From the IMG/VR virus record IMGVR_UViG_2830687482_000006, positions 11,083 through 75,082 of that record: DNA of 64,000 nt. One strand, 5' to 3'. Positions within the stretch are counted from its first letter, which is position 1, and each line of letters opens with the position of its first letter. Below are positions 11,029-52,911 of the stretch, one piece after another. The stretch comes from a virus (taxonomy: Duplodnaviria; Caudoviricetes). Under the pieces are notes generated by a model. The model did no database searches and was not told the DNA's origin. It worked only from the letters and a program-made list of their open reading frames with translations. The position numbers and the translations under genes were made by a program.

Positions 11029-11324
11029 TAGGTAACGTGTTCAATCACCCAAGCAAGAACATCATCTATTTCGTAGATGCTGATACCCATCTCTTCTACG
11101 GGAATCAAATCTTTTGAATCCTCAATAGGCTTTTTATAATTACTCAAAAGCCTGCGTAGGATCAAATCTCTGGTATCTTGACTAGTCATAATAGAGGCAA
11201 TCGCTTCGTCGGGCGTACCCACAAAGCGAAGAATGTCGTTAAAAATAACATAAGTCATACGAATAGGTTCTTCCCGTCCGGTGACTTTAATCTCTTCTTC
11301 GGGTCTTTCAAGCTTATCGGCCAC
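10920..11324 (-). CDS. Tail assembly chaperone (gpG-like)
   Basis: 134 aa, GTG start, next to the major tail gene; contains TAT TTT TTT (YFF) slippery site. Confidence 0.7.
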   Translation of the reverse strand: MADKLERPEEEIKVTGREEPIRMTYVIFNDILRFVGTPDEAIASIMTSQDTRDLILRRLLSNYKKPIEDSKDLIPVEEMGISIYEIDDVLAWVIEHVTYFFMSQAEKLQKRMKKYPEQAKKMMSSDRSETGTPV

Positions 11325-46638: not shown

Positions 46639-48017
46639 GTTAGGCCTTTCACATTCTGCATGACAGTATTAGAGAGATTTTCTTTCACAATCACAATTTT
46701 TCTGACTTTCTGGTCTACAGACCTCTCATATTCTAAGAAATAAATTGTTAGAGGAAACTGCCTCAATTCTCGTTCACCTCTACGTATAGATTGTTCAAGA
46801 TTTGAATCCAAATAATCCAAACTGGTGTAGACAATGATTTTAGTTCTTTGCCAGTTCCAGCCCGTTGAGGCTACCGCAGGGGTGGCACATATTGCATCAA
46901 GCTCTCCAGTCTGATAGGCTTCATCAACCGCTACTCGCTCCTTATGTGGGATTTTTCCGTGCATAACACCTACTTTGAGACCTAAATCTCTGAGGATTTG
47001 AGCATTAGCTTCAACCTCATCCGGCATTGACGAAAAGACAATCATACCTGACTCCGCAATTCCTTCCAAATATTCTTGTTTCGAAGTTTTCTCTTCGATT
47101 CCAAATATTTGTGGGCAATTGATAATTTGTCTAGCTCTCATAGTAGCAACACCGGGGTTAGTGCCGTCTAACATGAGTCCGTCTAGTTCTACACAAGCCA
47201 TTTGATCAAATTCGTCATATGCCTCACGCATTTTAGGTTTCATTTCAAGATCATCAATAATGATGATGTCTCTATCCTGATCGCCATGAATATCTTTCCA
47301 GAGACGACGAACTCCATGACGATTGAGAATTTCGGTCACTTTTTCCTCATTAACCCAATACAAGACTTTACCATAATCATCTACGAAACCGGCATGCTGT
47401 GCCAAGAACCCTTGGTAAGAGCCGTAATAGCTCGGCTCGATGATATGAGTCGCAGCAAAGCAACTGTCCAGACGTCCATCAATTGGAGTCCCGGTGCAGT
47501 AGTAGAATCCCTTACAGTAGTCCATCAGTTTATAAAGTTCAGCTGAGGCTTTGCTGTTATAGGTTTTGTAGCCTAAATGTCCTTCATCTACAATTACTAA
47601 ATCTATCTCTGGATGAAGATCAATTAAGTCAGTCCAATGATTTTTTAGAAACGTGAAACCTACGCAAAAAACCTTAGCATCTGGATCATCTATATAATTG
47701 ATGTAACCTGTCTCTTGACAAGCATTACTATATGCTCTTCGTTTGTGGGGTCCCAAAACCTCGTGAGCTTTTTCCAGAACCACCACTTCCTCAGGCTTAA
47801 ATCCTGTGAATCGTATAACCTCTAAGCGATTTTTGGAGCGAAGGTGATTGGGCTGCACAATAATTGTTTTTTTCGCTTTCTTTGTCCAATAATAATACGA
47901 CAAAGCACAAAAAATAGGTGTCTTACCTGTACCCGGTTCGGAGATGTTCAGCGAACGAGGATTACGAATAGCAACCGCAAGGTCTGCTATCTGGGTTGCT
48001 TTAAGAGTTGCTGTCAT
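46635..48017 (-). CDS. SF2 (SNF2-like) DNA helicase
   Basis: EPGTGKT, DEGH, TGTP, STGWN, QSIRRGER. Confidence 0.9.
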   Translation of the reverse strand: MTATLKATQIADLAVAIRNPRSLNISEPGTGKTPIFCALSYYYWTKKAKKTIIVQPNHLRSKNRLEVIRFTGFKPEEVVVLEKAHEVLGPHKRRAYSNACQETGYINYIDDPDAKVFCVGFTFLKNHWTDLIDLHPEIDLVIVDEGHLGYKTYNSKASAELYKLMDYCKGFYYCTGTPIDGRLDSCFAATHIIEPSYYGSYQGFLAQHAGFVDDYGKVLYWVNEEKVTEILNRHGVRRLWKDIHGDQDRDIIIIDDLEMKPKMREAYDEFDQMACVELDGLMLDGTNPGVATMRARQIINCPQIFGIEEKTSKQEYLEGIAESGMIVFSSMPDEVEANAQILRDLGLKVGVMHGKIPHKERVAVDEAYQTGELDAICATPAVASTGWNWQRTKIIVYTSLDYLDSNLEQSIRRGERELRQFPLTIYFLEYERSVDQKVRKIVIVKENLSNTVMQNVKGLT

Positions 48018-49197: not shown

Positions 49198-49308
49198 ACA
49201 CCTAGTTTGATGCTTAAACCCCACAGGGGGTTATGCCATCGTATCTGCCTCAGAGATACTCTATGATTTTTCACGTTTCTCTCCTTTCCAGATTGAGTTG
49301 ATAACTTT

Positions 49309-49337
49309 CCTTTAGAGGAAATTTTTATATGTGTCAA
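49309..49337 (-). promoter_or_regulatory. Putative promoter for the distal tRNA block
   Basis: TTGACA-N17-TAAAGG on the - strand at the end of the RNA ligase gene. Confidence 0.5.
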
Positions 49338-49939
49338 CTCTTCATTTCAGCCCACTTACCTTGTTCATCATAATCGAAAGTTTTTTTGAATGCTACACCA
49401 GATTTACGGTGAAACATAACAATACCTTCTGGGTCCATGAAGCCGGGGGCGTGATAGCTTCCATTTTCCTTTAACATGGTCATTATGCCTTGAGCCGCAC
49501 CATCCGGATTATTCAGATACTCATCTTGAATAAAAGTGTGAACAACCTCACAACATTGAGGACGATCTGGATTATCTTTCCAACGCAAGCTGTTGAAAAG
49601 TGCAAATCTTTTTTCTCCGCCAGTCAGCCCATAACCTCGCTTGATTCCAGAACCATACCACTCTCCGAAGTGTCGGCCTTCCCCTAGTTTGAAAAGCTCA
49701 CTAACATTATGTGAAACAAATCGAGCAAAACCCATGTTATCCTTATCTAAGGATAACCAGCGGTTGCGCGAACCAGCAAATAGATAATAGCCCTCATGCT
49801 CTGTCAGAGCAGCTCCGGGTTCTGATTGATAATCAGCCTTAGGTCGCCAAGCAACCTGCGCATTAGTTCCATCAAGTTTTTCAGTTATCGTCCAACCCTG
49901 ACTAAAACGAGTCAAACTAGAAAAGCGTTCAAAGTCCAT
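49334..49939 (-). CDS. RNA ligase (Rnl2-like nucleotidyltransferase domain)
   Basis: TEKLDGTN motif I, GSRNRW, FGEWYG, FALF, EGIV, FK motifs; no OB domain. Confidence 0.88.
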   Translation of the reverse strand: MDFERFSSLTRFSQGWTITEKLDGTNAQVAWRPKADYQSEPGAALTEHEGYYLFAGSRNRWLSLDKDNMGFARFVSHNVSELFKLGEGRHFGEWYGSGIKRGYGLTGGEKRFALFNSLRWKDNPDRPQCCEVVHTFIQDEYLNNPDGAAQGIMTMLKENGSYHAPGFMDPEGIVMFHRKSGVAFKKTFDYDEQGKWAEMKS

Positions 49940-50160
49940 TGATAATCTCCATCAAGTCTATTGGGGTGTAATTGATTTGTTCCATGCTCACACAACGGTA
50001 GCGAGGGTCTGAATAATTTCCATAGAAGATTTCTCCTACTTTTGACTGTATCAATTTATCATGAGTATGCCCATGCACATTTAATTTCCATCTATTCATG
50101 GATTGAGGGTGAATAGGAATATGAGACATGATCAACCCATGCTCCGGCTTCACGAGCCAT
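49929..50160 (-). pseudogene. Internally deleted metallophosphoesterase (C-terminal half only)
   Basis: SHIPIH...NVHGHTH...CVSMEQINYTP is present but the DxH/GD/GNHD half is absent. The RBS-ATG at 50160 is out of frame with it. Confidence 0.65.
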
Positions 50161-50176
50161 ATGTATCTCCTAAAAC

Positions 50177-50253
50177 TGGTTCCCCGCTCAGGCCTCGAAC
50201 CTGTTTCTTGGGATTCAAAGTCCCAGATTTTAACCAAATTAAACTATCGGGGA
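50177..50253 (-). tRNA. tRNA-Gln(UUG)
   Basis: TGGGA-CTTTGAA-TCCCA arm, CCA. Confidence 0.88.
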
Positions 50254-50254
50254 A

Positions 50255-50328
50255 TGGAGCGGAATGCGGGACTCGAACCCGCTTCTTTAGCTTGGAAGGC
50301 TAAGGCACAACCCATATACCAAATCCGC
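50255..50328 (-). tRNA. tRNA-Gly(UCC)
   Basis: GCGGATT acceptor, TTAGC-CTTCCAA-GCTAA, U73, CCA. Confidence 0.92.
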
Positions 50329-50333
50329 AATGA

Positions 50334-50402
50334 TGGAGCATAACGGAGTTGAACCGTTCCTAGCTCCTTGCAGGGGAACCGTCGGCACCCCCTCGGATGA
50401 CC
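50334..50402 (-). pseudogene. Degenerate tRNA-Cys-like remnant
   Basis: Intact T-arm AACGG-TTCAACT-CCGTT and TCCA end, CTGCAA loop; acceptor shortened and D-arm unpaired. Confidence 0.55.
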
Positions 50403-50618
50403 TTAAACTTGTATGTAATCAAATCTTCCTTTTACATTCTCGTTAAAGAAAATTCCAACTGAATTTGCTATGATCATAGATTCATAAATTGTTTTTGGAA
50501 CCGCATCATATTCATAAACAAGTCCTGAGTTGAACTCCACTTCCAAAGTCTCTGTAGACTCATCATATCCCACAGCAGCAATATTTGAACTTGAGACCGA
50601 TATTCTATCCATTTTCAT
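50403..50618 (-). CDS. KTSC domain protein
   Basis: VSSSNIAAVGYD...LEVEF.SG..YEY..VP..IY..M..A.SVG.FF...VK; RBS AGGAGA before ATG 50618. Confidence 0.92.
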   Translation of the reverse strand: MKMDRISVSSSNIAAVGYDESTETLEVEFNSGLVYEYDAVPKTIYESMIIANSVGIFFNENVKGRFDYIQV

Positions 50619-50627
50619 TCTCCTAAA

Positions 50628-50702
50628 TGGTGCCGGATTGAGGACTCGAACCCCATTCTTTCGCTTACAAGGCGACTGCATCCCCACTATTGCTCATCCG
50701 GC
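50628..50702 (-). tRNA. tRNA-Thr(UGU)
   Basis: GCCGGAT/ATCCGGC acceptor, CTTGTAA loop. Confidence 0.92.
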
Positions 50703-50704
50703 GC

Positions 50705-50780
50705 TGGTGTAGAAGGTAGGACTCGAACCCACATCTGCGAGGCTTCAACTCGCCGCTAAGACCTCATCAGCTACTTCTAC
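50705..50780 (-). tRNA. tRNA-Phe(GAA)
   Basis: GTAGAAG/CTTCTAC acceptor, GCGAG-TTGAAGC-CTCGC. Confidence 0.9.
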
Positions 50781-50781
50781 A

Positions 50782-50862
50782 TGGACCCCCAGACAGGATT
50801 CGAACCTGCATTTTCATCCAGTTATCCGTTTCTTGGTTCGTAGCCAAGGGGAATACTGAGGG
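50782..50862 (-). tRNA. D-armless tRNA-Arg(ACG)-like RNA with enlarged variable region
   Basis: CCCTCAG-TATTCCC-CTTGG-CTACGAA-CCAAG-AAACGGATAACTGGATGAAAAT-GCAGG-TTCGAAT-CCTGT-CTGGGGG-T-CCA. Confidence 0.8.
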
Positions 50863-50863
50863 A

Positions 50864-50938
50864 TGGTAGTCCGTGAGAATTATGCTATCCCGACCTTCCC
50901 CTTGTAAGGGGGACGCTCTACTTCTGAGCTAACGGACC
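50864..50938 (-). tRNA. tRNA-Val(UAC) with non-canonical T-loop
   Basis: TCCCC-CTTACAA-GGGGA; T-loop AGCATAA. Confidence 0.88.
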
Positions 50939-50940
50939 AT

Positions 50941-51016
50941 TGGTTGTTCCAGTAGGACTCGAACCTACGACACAGCGATTATCAGTCGCTTGCTCTACCA
51001 ACTGAGCTATGGAACA
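50941..51016 (-). tRNA. tRNA-Ile(GAU)
   Basis: Canonical cloverleaf, CTGATAA loop. Confidence 0.95.
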
Positions 51017-51156
51017 TCATTCTTAACGTCAAAATATCCTTTCAACCAAATCCATTTATTTTTCCCTCGTTTGAAAGGACAATCTGAATGAGAAAGACCA
51101 TTATATGCCGCTGATCTTCCATTGTTTTCTACTGAACCTTCATTCCAATGTAGCAC
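51007..51156 (-). CDS. Rmf/CrpP-like small protein (49 aa, below track cutoff)
   Basis: RBS AAGGAG, GTG start: MLHWNEGSVENNGRSAAYNGLSHSDCPFKRGKNKWIWLKGYFDVKNDVP; G..A...G.....CP(Y/F)......WL.G(W/Y) pattern of RMF. Confidence 0.6.
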   Translation of the reverse strand: MLHWNEGSVENNGRSAAYNGLSHSDCPFKRGKNKWIWLKGYFDVKNDVP

Positions 51157-51169
51157 ATCATATCTCCTT

Positions 51170-51244
51170 TGGTCGGCCCGAGGGGAATCGAACCCCCATT
51201 TCCTGATTGAAAGTCAAGCGTCTTAGCCATTAGACGACGGGTCG
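51170..51244 (-). tRNA. tRNA-Glu(UUC)
   Basis: CTTGA-CTTTCAA-TCAGG, CCA. Confidence 0.92.
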
Positions 51245-51286
51245 TCTACCAGCTTAACTCAATTCTCAATGTAGGAGTTGGGTTTA

Positions 51287-51389
51287 GACTAGTAGAGAGG
51301 TTCAGCCGAAGCGAATCTCTCGTTCACGCACGACAGCGAACCCACCTTGGCGGGTCGCTGTCGTTCCAATAAAGGTTGCGTTACTAGTC
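51287..51389 (-). ncRNA. Unassigned structured ncRNA (multi-stem junction)
   Basis: Closing stem GACTAGTA/TACTAGTC, 35-nt hairpin ACGACAGCGACCCGCC-AA-GGTGGGTTCGCTGTCGT, UUCG-capped hairpin; no ORF. Confidence 0.6.
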
Positions 51390-51401
51390 ATAATGATCAA
51401 C

Positions 51402-51430
51402 CCATAGCAAGGTAAATGACCTATGTCAAG
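51402..51430 (-). promoter_or_regulatory. Alphaproteobacterial RpoD-type promoter upstream of the ncRNA
   Basis: CTTGAC-N17-CTATGG on the - strand. Confidence 0.6.
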
Positions 51431-51488
51431 TGGAGCGACGAACAGGACTCGAACCTGCATGTTCTTGAGCCATTTCCGCCACCGTCGC
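51431..51488 (-). ncRNA. 58-nt anticodon-less tRNA-like RNA
   Basis: GCGACGG-TG-GCGGAAATGGCTCAAGAACAT-GCAGG-TTCGAGT-CCTGT-TCGTCGC-T-CCA: full acceptor and T-arm, D-loop GG, no anticodon arm. Confidence 0.7.
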
Positions 51489-51500
51489 TAAAGAAAGAAG

Positions 51501-51577
51501 TGGTGAACGGCCCTAGACTTGAACTCGGAACCCCCGACTTAAAAGGACGGTGCTCTAACCTATTGAGCTAGCCGTTC
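51501..51577 (-). tRNA. tRNA-Lys(UUU)
   Basis: GAACGGC/GCCGTTC acceptor, CCGTC-CTTTTAA-GTCGG (U30-U40 mismatch). Confidence 0.9.
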
Positions 51578-51889
51578 ACGAATAAAAGCACCTTTGGTGC
51601 TGAAAAAACCATAACGATGCTTGGCTTGCTCTGCCCTAGCAAACGCACCGAGCAGAGTTTCTCTTGAATATGTTTCGGGACTCCATTGACCTTCTAGACC
51701 ATAACAGGAACAATGTCCACCTGAAACATAATAGTATGTGTCTCCATTTCTATACAGAACATCAGCACTACCATCGCAACCATAAGCTTCATGATCATAC
51801 TGAGCATATAGAACCTCATCTGGTTCTGGGTCGTTCATCGCAAATTCTCTTTGAACATCTCCCCAATTACTGAACAGATCATAATACAT
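51560..51889 (-). CDS. Conserved-looking phage hypothetical protein with HCSCYG motif
   Basis: RBS AGGAG; VLYAQY...G.A.V...GGHCSCYGLEGQW.PE. Confidence 0.6.
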   Translation of the reverse strand: MYYDLFSNWGDVQREFAMNDPEPDEVLYAQYDHEAYGCDGSADVLYRNGDTYYYVSGGHCSCYGLEGQWSPETYSRETLLGAFARAEQAKHRYGFFSTKGAFIRERLAQ

Positions 51890-51906
51890 ACTATTCTCCT
51901 TAAAAA

Positions 51907-51984
51907 TGGTGCGCCTAGTAGGACTCGAACCTACAACCTACCGATTAGAAGTCGGCAACTCTATTCCAGTTGAGCTATAGGCGC
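51907..51984 (-). tRNA. tRNA-Arg(UCU)
   Basis: Canonical cloverleaf, CTTCTAA loop. Confidence 0.95.
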
Positions 51985-51991
51985 AAAAACT

Positions 51992-52232
51992 ATGGCCCGT
52001 TCTGTTCCACGGTGGGCCAAGCCGGTGTCAAGAGCAGTTAAGCTGCGAGACGAAGTGCCATTTCTGGCTGGTTATCATTGACAGTTATCAATGTTGATCT
52101 TTTAAGGTAATCACACCTACAACCTCACACTAGCTTATCCCGTCAGTCGATACCCTTTCACCCCCATTATGGTGGAGGTGGGCGCACTCGAAGCGCCGTC
52201 CTGTCCGTATTCACTAGTGGTCAGCGATTGTT
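51992..52232 (-). ncRNA. ssrA: Circularly permuted (two-piece) tmRNA; tag (A)VNDNQPEMALRLAA*
   Basis: Acceptor piece ends CACCTCC-A-CCA (52170), 4-nt spacer TAAT, coding piece starts GGGGGTG (52165) with G3-U70. Tag ORF at 52082-52038; terminal GGCCCACCGTGGAACAGAACGGGCC hairpin. The 5' boundary is approximate. Confidence 0.92.
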
Positions 52233-52352
52233 CCTCAAAACTTCCTGCATAAACTTCTTAAAGTCGGCATCACTTCCGGTTCCTTTGCCTAAATTAGCAG
52301 CGGTGCAAACAAATTGCACATTTCCTTCTCCGCTGTCAACAGATAGTTTCAC
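52221..52352 (-). pseudogene. HNH/His-Me endonuclease remnant
   Basis: VKLSVDSGEGNVQFVCTAANLGK...: S.D...GNVQFV...N..K motif with the RIDSSKGY-type segment missing. Confidence 0.45.
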
Positions 52353-52911
52353 TCACCATATCCGTGAAGTTTAGATCAACCCCTAAAATCCACTTATGTG
52401 AAGGATACCTTGGAACCCAACGAGAAAACCTATGAACACTGCTAGCCAGCGCCAGTGGTGATTCTGATCTTATCAGGCGAAAAACCTTATCATCATGATC
52501 TTCCAAATAGCCCTTGCTTCTTTCCAAGTATTTTCCATTAAAAGAAATTTGACAAAGACCATAATCGAATCTCTGAGTTATATATTGAATACTCCAATTC
52601 ACAAAAATTAGTTGGATTGGGGGAAGTCCTTCAACATCCATATTAGTCACTAATATAATTTCTCTCATAGATTCAGGATACCAAGCATCGGTATCATTTT
52701 GCTCAGGTTCTTTTCCCCCTAATAATTTGTTAAGGGCTGTAGCTTCACTTTCTGAGCCACAAGCTACAAAGAAATCTAAATCTTTTACATCTAGGCCATG
52801 ATCTAAATCTCTTAAAGACCCTCCAGCAAGAACTACTTTAGAATGAATAGTTTGAAACTTAAGTAGAAGATCGACCCATTCTTTTGGAATGTCTTTTTCG
52901 GTAATCATCAC
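52336..52911 (-). CDS. tRNA nucleotidyltransferase/poly(A) polymerase head-domain protein
   Basis: LAGGSLRD...KDLDFF and RFDYGLCQI motifs; adjacent to the tRNA array. Confidence 0.8.
   Translation of the reverse strand: MMITEKDIPKEWVDLLLKFQTIHSKVVLAGGSLRDLDHGLDVKDLDFFVACGSESEATALNKLLGGKEPEQNDTDAWYPESMREIILVTNMDVEGLPPIQLIFVNWSIQYITQRFDYGLCQISFNGKYLERSKGYLEDHDDKVFRLIRSESPLALASSVHRFSRWVPRYPSHKWILGVDLNFTDMVSETIC

Follow-up and report, generated by a model that had tools for sequence, protein, structure and literature searches.

A phage tRNA-Arg-like gene family with a rewired layout

Few biological shapes are as strongly conserved as the cloverleaf. Transfer RNAs (tRNAs) without a D-arm occur in mitochondria, where the GG and T-loop motifs of the elbow have been lost, the molecules are flexible, and the organellar factors that handle them have co-evolved. 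In bacteria, all known tRNAs are cloverleaves, according to the abstract of a 2024 paper (PMC11551756), and phages go unmentioned in a 2020 review of non-canonical natural tRNAs. In Escherichia coli, EF-Tu, the ribosome and histidyl-tRNA synthetase (HisRS) need no adaptation to use an engineered D-armless tRNA (PMC11551756). The subject of this report is a gene for an 81-nucleotide (nt) tRNA-Arg-like RNA, located at 50862..50782 on the minus strand of a 64,000-nt stretch of phage DNA (IMG/VR record IMGVR_UViG_2830687482_000006, positions 11,083 to 75,082), which is called the window in the following. A full-text literature search, with most subscription journals outside its scope, found no phage or bacterial tRNA with the rewired layout of this RNA.

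Layout, relatives and covarying helices

Read on the minus strand, the RNA has the hallmarks of a tRNA. These are a 7-base-pair (bp) acceptor stem (nt 1–7 with 71–77, including a U4–G74 wobble), a 5-bp anticodon stem (CUUGG/CCAAG, nt 15–19 with 27–31), a 7-nt loop (CUACGAA) with U33 and the anticodon ACG, a T-arm of the UUCRA type (stem GCAGG/CCUGU, nt 54–58 with 66–70; loop UUCGAAU), and a 3' end consisting of the discriminator U78, which is the N73 position, and an encoded CCA. The conventional D-arm hairpin (stem 10–13 with 22–25) is missing, and the acceptor and anticodon stems are joined only by the 7-nt connector UAUUCCC. The initial annotation of the gene, made from the sequence alone, had likewise described the acceptor, anticodon arm, T-arm and CCA as intact and the D-arm as replaced by 7 nt. 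The 22-nt segment 3' of the anticodon arm contains UAACUGGA, and the D-loop of the window's own ordinary tRNA-Arg(UCU) begins with AACUGGA as well.

ARAGORN makes no call for this gene. With the Rfam tRNA model RF00005 it reaches 29.5 bits (gathering score 29), but only in an alignment that leaves out the D-arm and accommodates 19 extra nt in the variable region. With a covariance model of its own subtype, the gene reaches 89.3 bits, as opposed to 25–31 bits for the ordinary tRNAs of the window. Because of this difference, and because the layout is common to 93 listed relatives, the RNA is more than a chance resemblance.

An exact 31-base scan of viral contigs gave zero matches, and a short blastn search against 80 loci with a related ligase gave a partial match in a single contig, L002. 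Relatives were located first by synteny and then by a degenerate pattern derived from three genes (TGGA, 1–4 bases, GAARATG, 2 bases, GGTTCGA), which matched at least 116 viral contigs. At least 93 distinct sequences in viral contigs have the rewired layout. They measure 76–81 nt up to N73 and are found in phage tRNA arrays. Eight other parsed matches are without the layout; they are mostly ordinary tRNAs, together with one chance match and one ACG gene (L158) whose T and acceptor stems are broken.

Among the 93 listed relatives, the anticodons are those of arginine only (ACG 35, UCU 49, UCG 7, CCU 1, GCG 1), so that all have C35 and either G36 or U36, and each anticodon sits in a loop context that is normal for it. 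The loop CUACGAA is present in 33 of them, and CCA is encoded in 61. Both GG and the UUCGA T-loop are invariant in the family. A uracil at N73 had been pointed out as atypical for arginine; it is indeed present in the window gene, and the position varies freely among the listed relatives (U 36, G 32, A 24, C 1).

The family is defined by a 7- or 8-nt connector that begins with UA and pairs with the two bases directly 5' of a UAAYUGGA motif behind the anticodon arm. It splits into a type with a 7-nt connector (45 listed sequences, including that of the window) and a type with an 8-nt connector (48 sequences). The window gene belongs here by its pairs U11–A38 and C12–G37, its arginine anticodon and its place in a phage tRNA array. 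In the 7-nt type, the helix between connector positions 11 and 12 and the two bases before the U-A-A of the motif, termed P1, is paired in 98.9% of cases, compared with 60.8% after shuffling and 10–59% when one strand is slid by 1–3 columns. One of its pairs occurs as CG, UA, AU and GC, the other as CG, GC, AU and UA. The 8-nt type has a P1 of 2–3 bp and a second helix, P2, which are together paired in 91.1% of cases (shuffled 69.2%; slid by 1–3 columns 21–36%). P2 consists of three covarying pairs between bases 9–11 and the three bases directly 3' of the motif; one pair is GC in 26 sequences and AU in 17, the next is CG in 27, UA in 11 and AU in 3, and A9–U is invariant. The acceptor, anticodon and T stems are 95–99% paired and show many changes on both sides.

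The P1 helix of the window gene is extended by a further pair, C13–G36, which is specific to this gene. As a conserved pair it was rejected, being formed in only 4 of 40 sequences. A pairing of TATTCC with GGATA had been suggested earlier, but its register is off by one: over the 45 relatives, it is 64.5% paired versus 65.9% after shuffling. The constant pairs in that register are U8–A40 and A9–U39 only; both are invariant, hence beyond the reach of covariation.

The proposal in the initial annotation that the gene is a rewired tRNA-Arg and not a product of decay is borne out by the homologues. At least 93 of them keep the D-loop motif together with the loss of the D-arm, which was the check suggested there; all have arginine anticodons, and the new pairing covaries. 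The description as 'D-armless' holds in so far as no D-hairpin is present, but a short D-stem-like helix forms around the anticodon arm. Similarly, the relocation of the D-loop motif behind the anticodon arm is kept in the homologues, whereas the elbow that it was thought to rebuild, a contact of GG with the T-loop, is suggested by the invariance of these motifs only.

The covariation implies that a D-stem exists but would enclose the anticodon arm, with the D-loop bulging from its 3' strand or extending it. The RNA would thus consist of a core of acceptor, D-hairpin, variable loop and T-arm, into which the anticodon arm is inserted at the 5' edge of the D-loop, and the usual four-way junction would be turned into a three-way junction. 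The D and anticodon arms of an ordinary tRNA comprise about 12 stacked layers. The unbroken 5' strand that starts at A9 and runs through the anticodon stem has 11 nt in the window gene and 12 nt in the 8-nt type; since this is close to the ordinary number of layers, the distance between elbow and anticodon could be preserved. Ordinary tRNAs also have a U8–A14 pair. If U8 paired in a similar way with the first A of the motif, this pair would cross P2 and generate a pseudoknot.

The two contigs with the closest DNA ligase (69% identity), L002 and L003, harbour tRNA arrays at the same position as the window, and rewired members among the 80 ligase-related loci are confined to these two. In L002, a gene of the same layout occupies the same site, after Ile and Val and before Thr/Phe genes. 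It is identical to the window gene at 60 of 81 bases, with compensatory changes at pairs 1–77, 3–75 and 6–72, at one pair of the anticodon stem and in P1 (U–A to C–G). Both contigs have a second rewired gene with the anticodon UCU. That of L003 (13350–13428) has one mismatch each in the acceptor stem and the T-stem (G–G), its anticodon stem is weak, and it may be decaying.

A covariance model search of 120 related cellular genomes found the gene in none of them; in this search it occurs on this phage contig only, and it is therefore not a host gene. In a collection of species-representative genomes, 12 of 120 pattern matches have the family layout, and the rest are mostly chance matches in coding DNA. 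All 8 loci of this collection that were examined by ARAGORN have further tRNA genes, mostly in long arrays. Three of the collection loci are on chromosome-sized contigs, where the rewired genes may belong to prophages. Among cultured phages, the genes were read in Xanthomonas phage XacN1, in many Streptomyces phages (Braelyn, Mildred21 and relatives) and in an Alishewanella phage. The XacN1 gene lies at about 47790–47866 of record AP018399. BLAST-similar stretches, seen as matches only, are present in Rhodococcus, Microbacterium, Stenotrophomonas, Pseudomonas, Maribacter and Vibrio phages. One query of the 8-nt type matched no cultured phage, while other queries matched some.

This is a large phage tRNA family that gene finders mostly miss. 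ARAGORN reports 5 of the 93 listed members, mostly mis-delimited or mistyped, and in GenBank the members are mostly unannotated, including the genes of Braelyn and XacN1. The gene of Streptomyces phage Mildred21 (L320, 298–372) is labelled 'tRNA-OTHER' and that of Alishewanella phage Slicko01 (L321, 296–374) 'tRNA-Ser'; the anticodon loop of both is CUUCUAA, which is that of an arginine tRNA (UCU).

Arginine decoding and competing explanations

The gene is best read as that of a functional elongator tRNA-Arg(ACG) whose topology is not that of a cloverleaf and which would fill the arginine slot of the phage tRNA set. We assign a probability of about 0.7 to this reading. Once expressed and processed, the RNA would fold in such a way that, after U8, the chain descends a short D-stem-like helix straight into the anticodon stem and returns along the other side of this helix, where G36 G37 A38 would face C13 C12 U11. 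The D-loop sequence with its GG would be presented only after this return strand, and the T-stem would then be reached via GAAAAU. By docking on the intact T-loop, the GG could form the elbow. The host arginyl-tRNA synthetase (ArgRS) would charge the RNA via C35 and G36 of the anticodon and the A after GG. Editing of A34 by the host TadA would be possible because the loop is the standard CUACGAA, and the tRNA could then read CGU, CGC and CGA for the phage.

The tRNA sets of the carriers fit an arginine function. ARAGORN finds no ordinary arginine tRNA in 60 of the 93 listed loci, and an ordinary arginine tRNA with the same anticodon in 11. In the 18 listed arrays with at least 18 ordinary tRNAs, arginine is the rarest isotype, being present in 8. 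The array of L002 has 19 ordinary tRNAs, none for arginine, and two rewired genes (ACG and UCU). The arginine codons of the window's contig are AGA (36%), CGU (19%), CGA (16%), CGC (11%), AGG (10%) and CGG (8%). With the ordinary tRNA-Arg(UCU) of the window, the rewired gene would cover 82% of them (AGA, CGU, CGC, CGA), provided that A34 is edited.

Bacterial ArgRS recognises C35, G36 or U36, and A20 in the D-loop; A73 or G73 is a minor element. C35 and G36 are present in the window gene, and the invariant A 3' of GG could match A20 or A21. Use of the rewired RNA by bacterial factors seems feasible because those of E. coli accept a D-armless tRNA (PMC11551756).

Several observations weigh against this reading. 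Because the search pattern specifies part of the D-loop-like motif as well as the GAARAU connector and the T-loop, invariance there is to some extent built in. P1 of the 7-nt subtype has just two conserved pairs, and in P2 of this subtype, which is that of the window, the pair 10–48 is formed in 25 of 45 sequences only, about half. U8, A9, U39, A40 and A41 are invariant, and covariation assigns them no partners. Nearest-neighbour folding predicts neither P1 nor P2; RNAalifold and single-sequence minimum-free-energy folds return the three classical stems only, so that the evidence for both helices comes from covariation alone. The single-sequence fold is no more stable than those of shuffled sequences (z = −0.33). 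By chain-length reasoning, GG may not easily reach the T-loop, as only one base returns it to the helix. The window gene has U73, where bacterial tRNA-Arg usually has A or G. In public sequencing runs, the region 49300–52300 was found in freshwater metagenome DNA contigs only, as a small share, and in no RNA run.

The alternative that survives best, although it is unlikely, is that the RNA is a non-decoding tRNA mimic. After tRNA-like processing, and perhaps charging, it would act as a decoy or sponge whose altered core prevents its use or cleavage; it could be directed at a host nuclease that attacks tRNA-Arg, at ArgRS, or at a defence that senses tRNAs. A role in tRNA damage and repair would suit an array that holds an RNA ligase, a nucleotidyltransferase-like open reading frame (ORF) and a transfer-messenger RNA (tmRNA), and the same array has a 58-nt tRNA-like RNA without an anticodon arm, which cannot decode. 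Two papers describe phage tRNAs as a counter to tRNA-targeting defences (PMC10264068, PMC11464382), and the uncertain route of the relocated GG to the T-loop also speaks for a mimic. However, a decoy needs no five different arginine anticodons, each in its normal loop context, nor would it be expected to replace the missing ordinary arginine tRNA in near-complete sets. In addition, the anticodon stem of the family covaries as strictly as those of true tRNAs.

A decaying tRNA-Arg pseudogene that has lost its D-arm and gained an insertion is very improbable. The borderline Rfam score, the missing ARAGORN call and the stem mismatches of the L003 relative would agree with decay, but the same layout recurs in at least 93 distinct sequences, where every helix, the new one among them, shows compensatory changes, and the nearest relative retains it in the same location at 26% divergence. 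Still less credible is an ordinary tRNA gene with an insertion or intron, or a circularly permuted one, that is processed to a normal cloverleaf: intron-bearing and permuted tRNA genes occur elsewhere, but removing any single segment would not bring the D-loop and a D-stem strand ahead of the anticodon arm, and the lengths of the listed members vary little. A circularly permuted gene would have its ends inside the mature tRNA and the true ends joined mid-gene, whereas here the two gene ends form a normal acceptor stem followed by CCA. Even taken together, a pseudogene and a processing artefact account for only a very small part of the probability.

If the gene is indeed a functional tRNA-Arg, its family would be the first natural family of non-cloverleaf elongator tRNAs outside organelles, and it would show that a tRNA core of different topology can work with the ordinary translation apparatus of bacteria. 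On balance, we lean slightly towards the view that bacterial ribosomes, EF-Tu, RNase P and ArgRS routinely use natural non-cloverleaf tRNAs in which the anticodon arm lies in the D-loop and the L-shape is kept. Phages may have evolved and spread the rewired design for their arginine tRNAs; one possible reason is that nucleases or quality control of the host that act on ordinary tRNA-Arg would miss the altered core. Such a role would explain the apparent lack of arginine tRNAs in many phage sets and would improve phage annotation. It would also offer a natural scaffold for orthogonal tRNAs and raise the question of an arginine-specific conflict between phages and tRNA-targeting defences.

Genomic setting

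The rewired gene lies within a tight run of minus-strand tRNA genes at 48.6–52.3 kb, in the local order Ile, an odd Val, the rewired gene, Phe and Thr, with close spacing between neighbours. The run also holds a permuted tmRNA, RNA ligase-like, KTSC-domain and nucleotidyltransferase-like ORFs, and a DNA ligase; RIIA, RIIB, a ribonucleotide reductase and a helicase are encoded nearby. The contig of 75 kb has 42.3% G+C and was binned in a fragmented assembly whose other contigs average 48.9% G+C. It is thus a contig of a lytic-type phage.

The odd Val gene, directly upstream of the rewired gene, is a tRNA-Val(UAC)-like gene that scores 47.3 bits with Rfam and is not called by ARAGORN. Its T-loop is AGCAUAA instead of UUCRA and its D-loop AGAAGUA without GG, so both elbow partners are lost. 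At the same site in L002, the Val gene is an ordinary tRNA-Val.

The 58-nt tRNA-like RNA of the array has a 7-bp acceptor, U73 and CCA, but the anticodon arm is absent. The acceptor is followed by a D-hairpin-like element (GGC, a 7-nt loop with GG, GCU), a connector of 8–9 nt and a T-arm. The T-stem is identical to that of the rewired gene, the T-loop differs by one base, and the RNA reaches 30.9 bits with the rewired-tRNA model. It looks like the rewired core minus the inserted anticodon arm.

A phage-encoded permuted tmRNA stands at the head of the array in the window and also in L002 (12892–13088) and L003 (12281–12651). The alphaproteobacterial tmRNA model recognises the L003 copy as well, a hint that its host may be an alphaproteobacterium. 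Of the three ORFs interleaved with the tRNA genes, the RNA ligase-like one has a Pfam score slightly under the cut-off; together they could form a module for tRNA repair and re-tailing. No Rfam family reaches its gathering score in another stretch between tRNA genes, which has several strong stems.

Table 1. Segments of the rewired tRNA-Arg-like RNA and neighbouring features, in positions of the window
Feature	Position	Strand	Evidence or remark
Acceptor stem, 5' strand, nt 1–7	50856..50862	−	All 7 pairs vary on both sides; 98.7% of cells paired
U8, A9, U10	50853..50855	−	U8 and A9 invariant in family; A9–U10 could pair with A46–U47 (P2)
Helix P1, 5' strand, U11 C12 C13 (D-stem-like)	50850..50852	−	U11–A38 and C12–G37 columns 98.9% paired, four pair types each
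Anticodon arm, nt 15–19 with 27–31, loop CUACGAA	50832..50848 (anticodon ACG 50839–50841)	−	Five pairs covary; 98.2% of cells paired
Internal loop A32–C35 and P1 3' strand G36 G37 A38	50825..50831	−	Family alignment, pairing counts
D-loop-like motif UAACUGGA, nt 39–46	50817..50824	−	Columns invariant or at least 90% conserved; U, AA and GG invariant, then an invariant A
U47 and GAAAAU connector, nt 48–53 (variable-loop role)	50810..50816	−	GAARAU conserved, partly built in by the search pattern
T-arm, nt 54–58 with 66–70, loop UUCGAAU	50793..50809	−	99.1% of cells paired
Acceptor stem, 3' strand, nt 71–77, discriminator U78 and encoded CCA	50782..50792	−	Read from the sequence
tRNA-Val(UAC)-like gene	50867–50938	−	47.3 bits with Rfam
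58-nt tRNA-like RNA	51431–51488	−	30.9 bits with the rewired-tRNA model
Ordinary tRNA-Arg(UCU)	51907–51984
Permuted tmRNA	52038–52232	−	100.7 bits
ORFs interleaved with tRNA genes (RNA ligase-like, KTSC-domain, nucleotidyltransferase-like)	49334–49939, 50403–50687, 52336–52911	−
Stretch between tRNA genes, about 126 nt	51279–51404	−	Several strong stems, including a GAGAG/CUCUC hairpin

Comparison with known tRNAs

With an ordinary class I tRNA-Arg (RF00005), the rewired RNA shares the 7-bp acceptor, the 5-bp anticodon stem and its 7-nt loop, U33, C35, UUCGA and CCA, as well as an AACUGGA-type D-loop sequence in which an A follows GG. The ordinary molecule has a D-hairpin at nt 10–25, whereas the rewired RNA has none there. 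Instead, the 5' strand of the D-stem runs into the anticodon stem, and its partners, followed by the D-loop, come behind the anticodon arm. The result is a three-way junction in place of the four-way junction of the ordinary tRNA-Arg.

The metazoan mitochondrial tRNA-Ser(AGY/N) (PMC4013460, PMC9427863, PMC7609411) resembles the rewired RNA in that the D-hairpin is absent and a short connector follows the acceptor. In both, the anticodon helix can be extended by pairing of this connector with the region behind the anticodon arm. In contrast to the mitochondrial type, GG, UUCGA, U8 and other core bases are invariant in the rewired family, and the elbow motifs are kept. The mitochondrial type is also organellar, whereas the rewired RNA is viral and would need ordinary bacterial factors.

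The engineered 'mini HisT' (PMC11551756) is likewise without a normal D-arm and is tolerated by bacterial EF-Tu, the ribosome and a synthetase. It is, however, artificial and its D-arm was simply deleted, while the rewired RNA is natural. The allo-tRNAs, with acceptor/T lengths of 8/4 or 9/3 (PMC5389517), are natural non-standard tRNAs that were also obtained from bacteria and phages by metagenome searches. They keep the arm order of the cloverleaf and change the stem lengths; the rewired RNA keeps the standard 7/5 lengths and changes the order.
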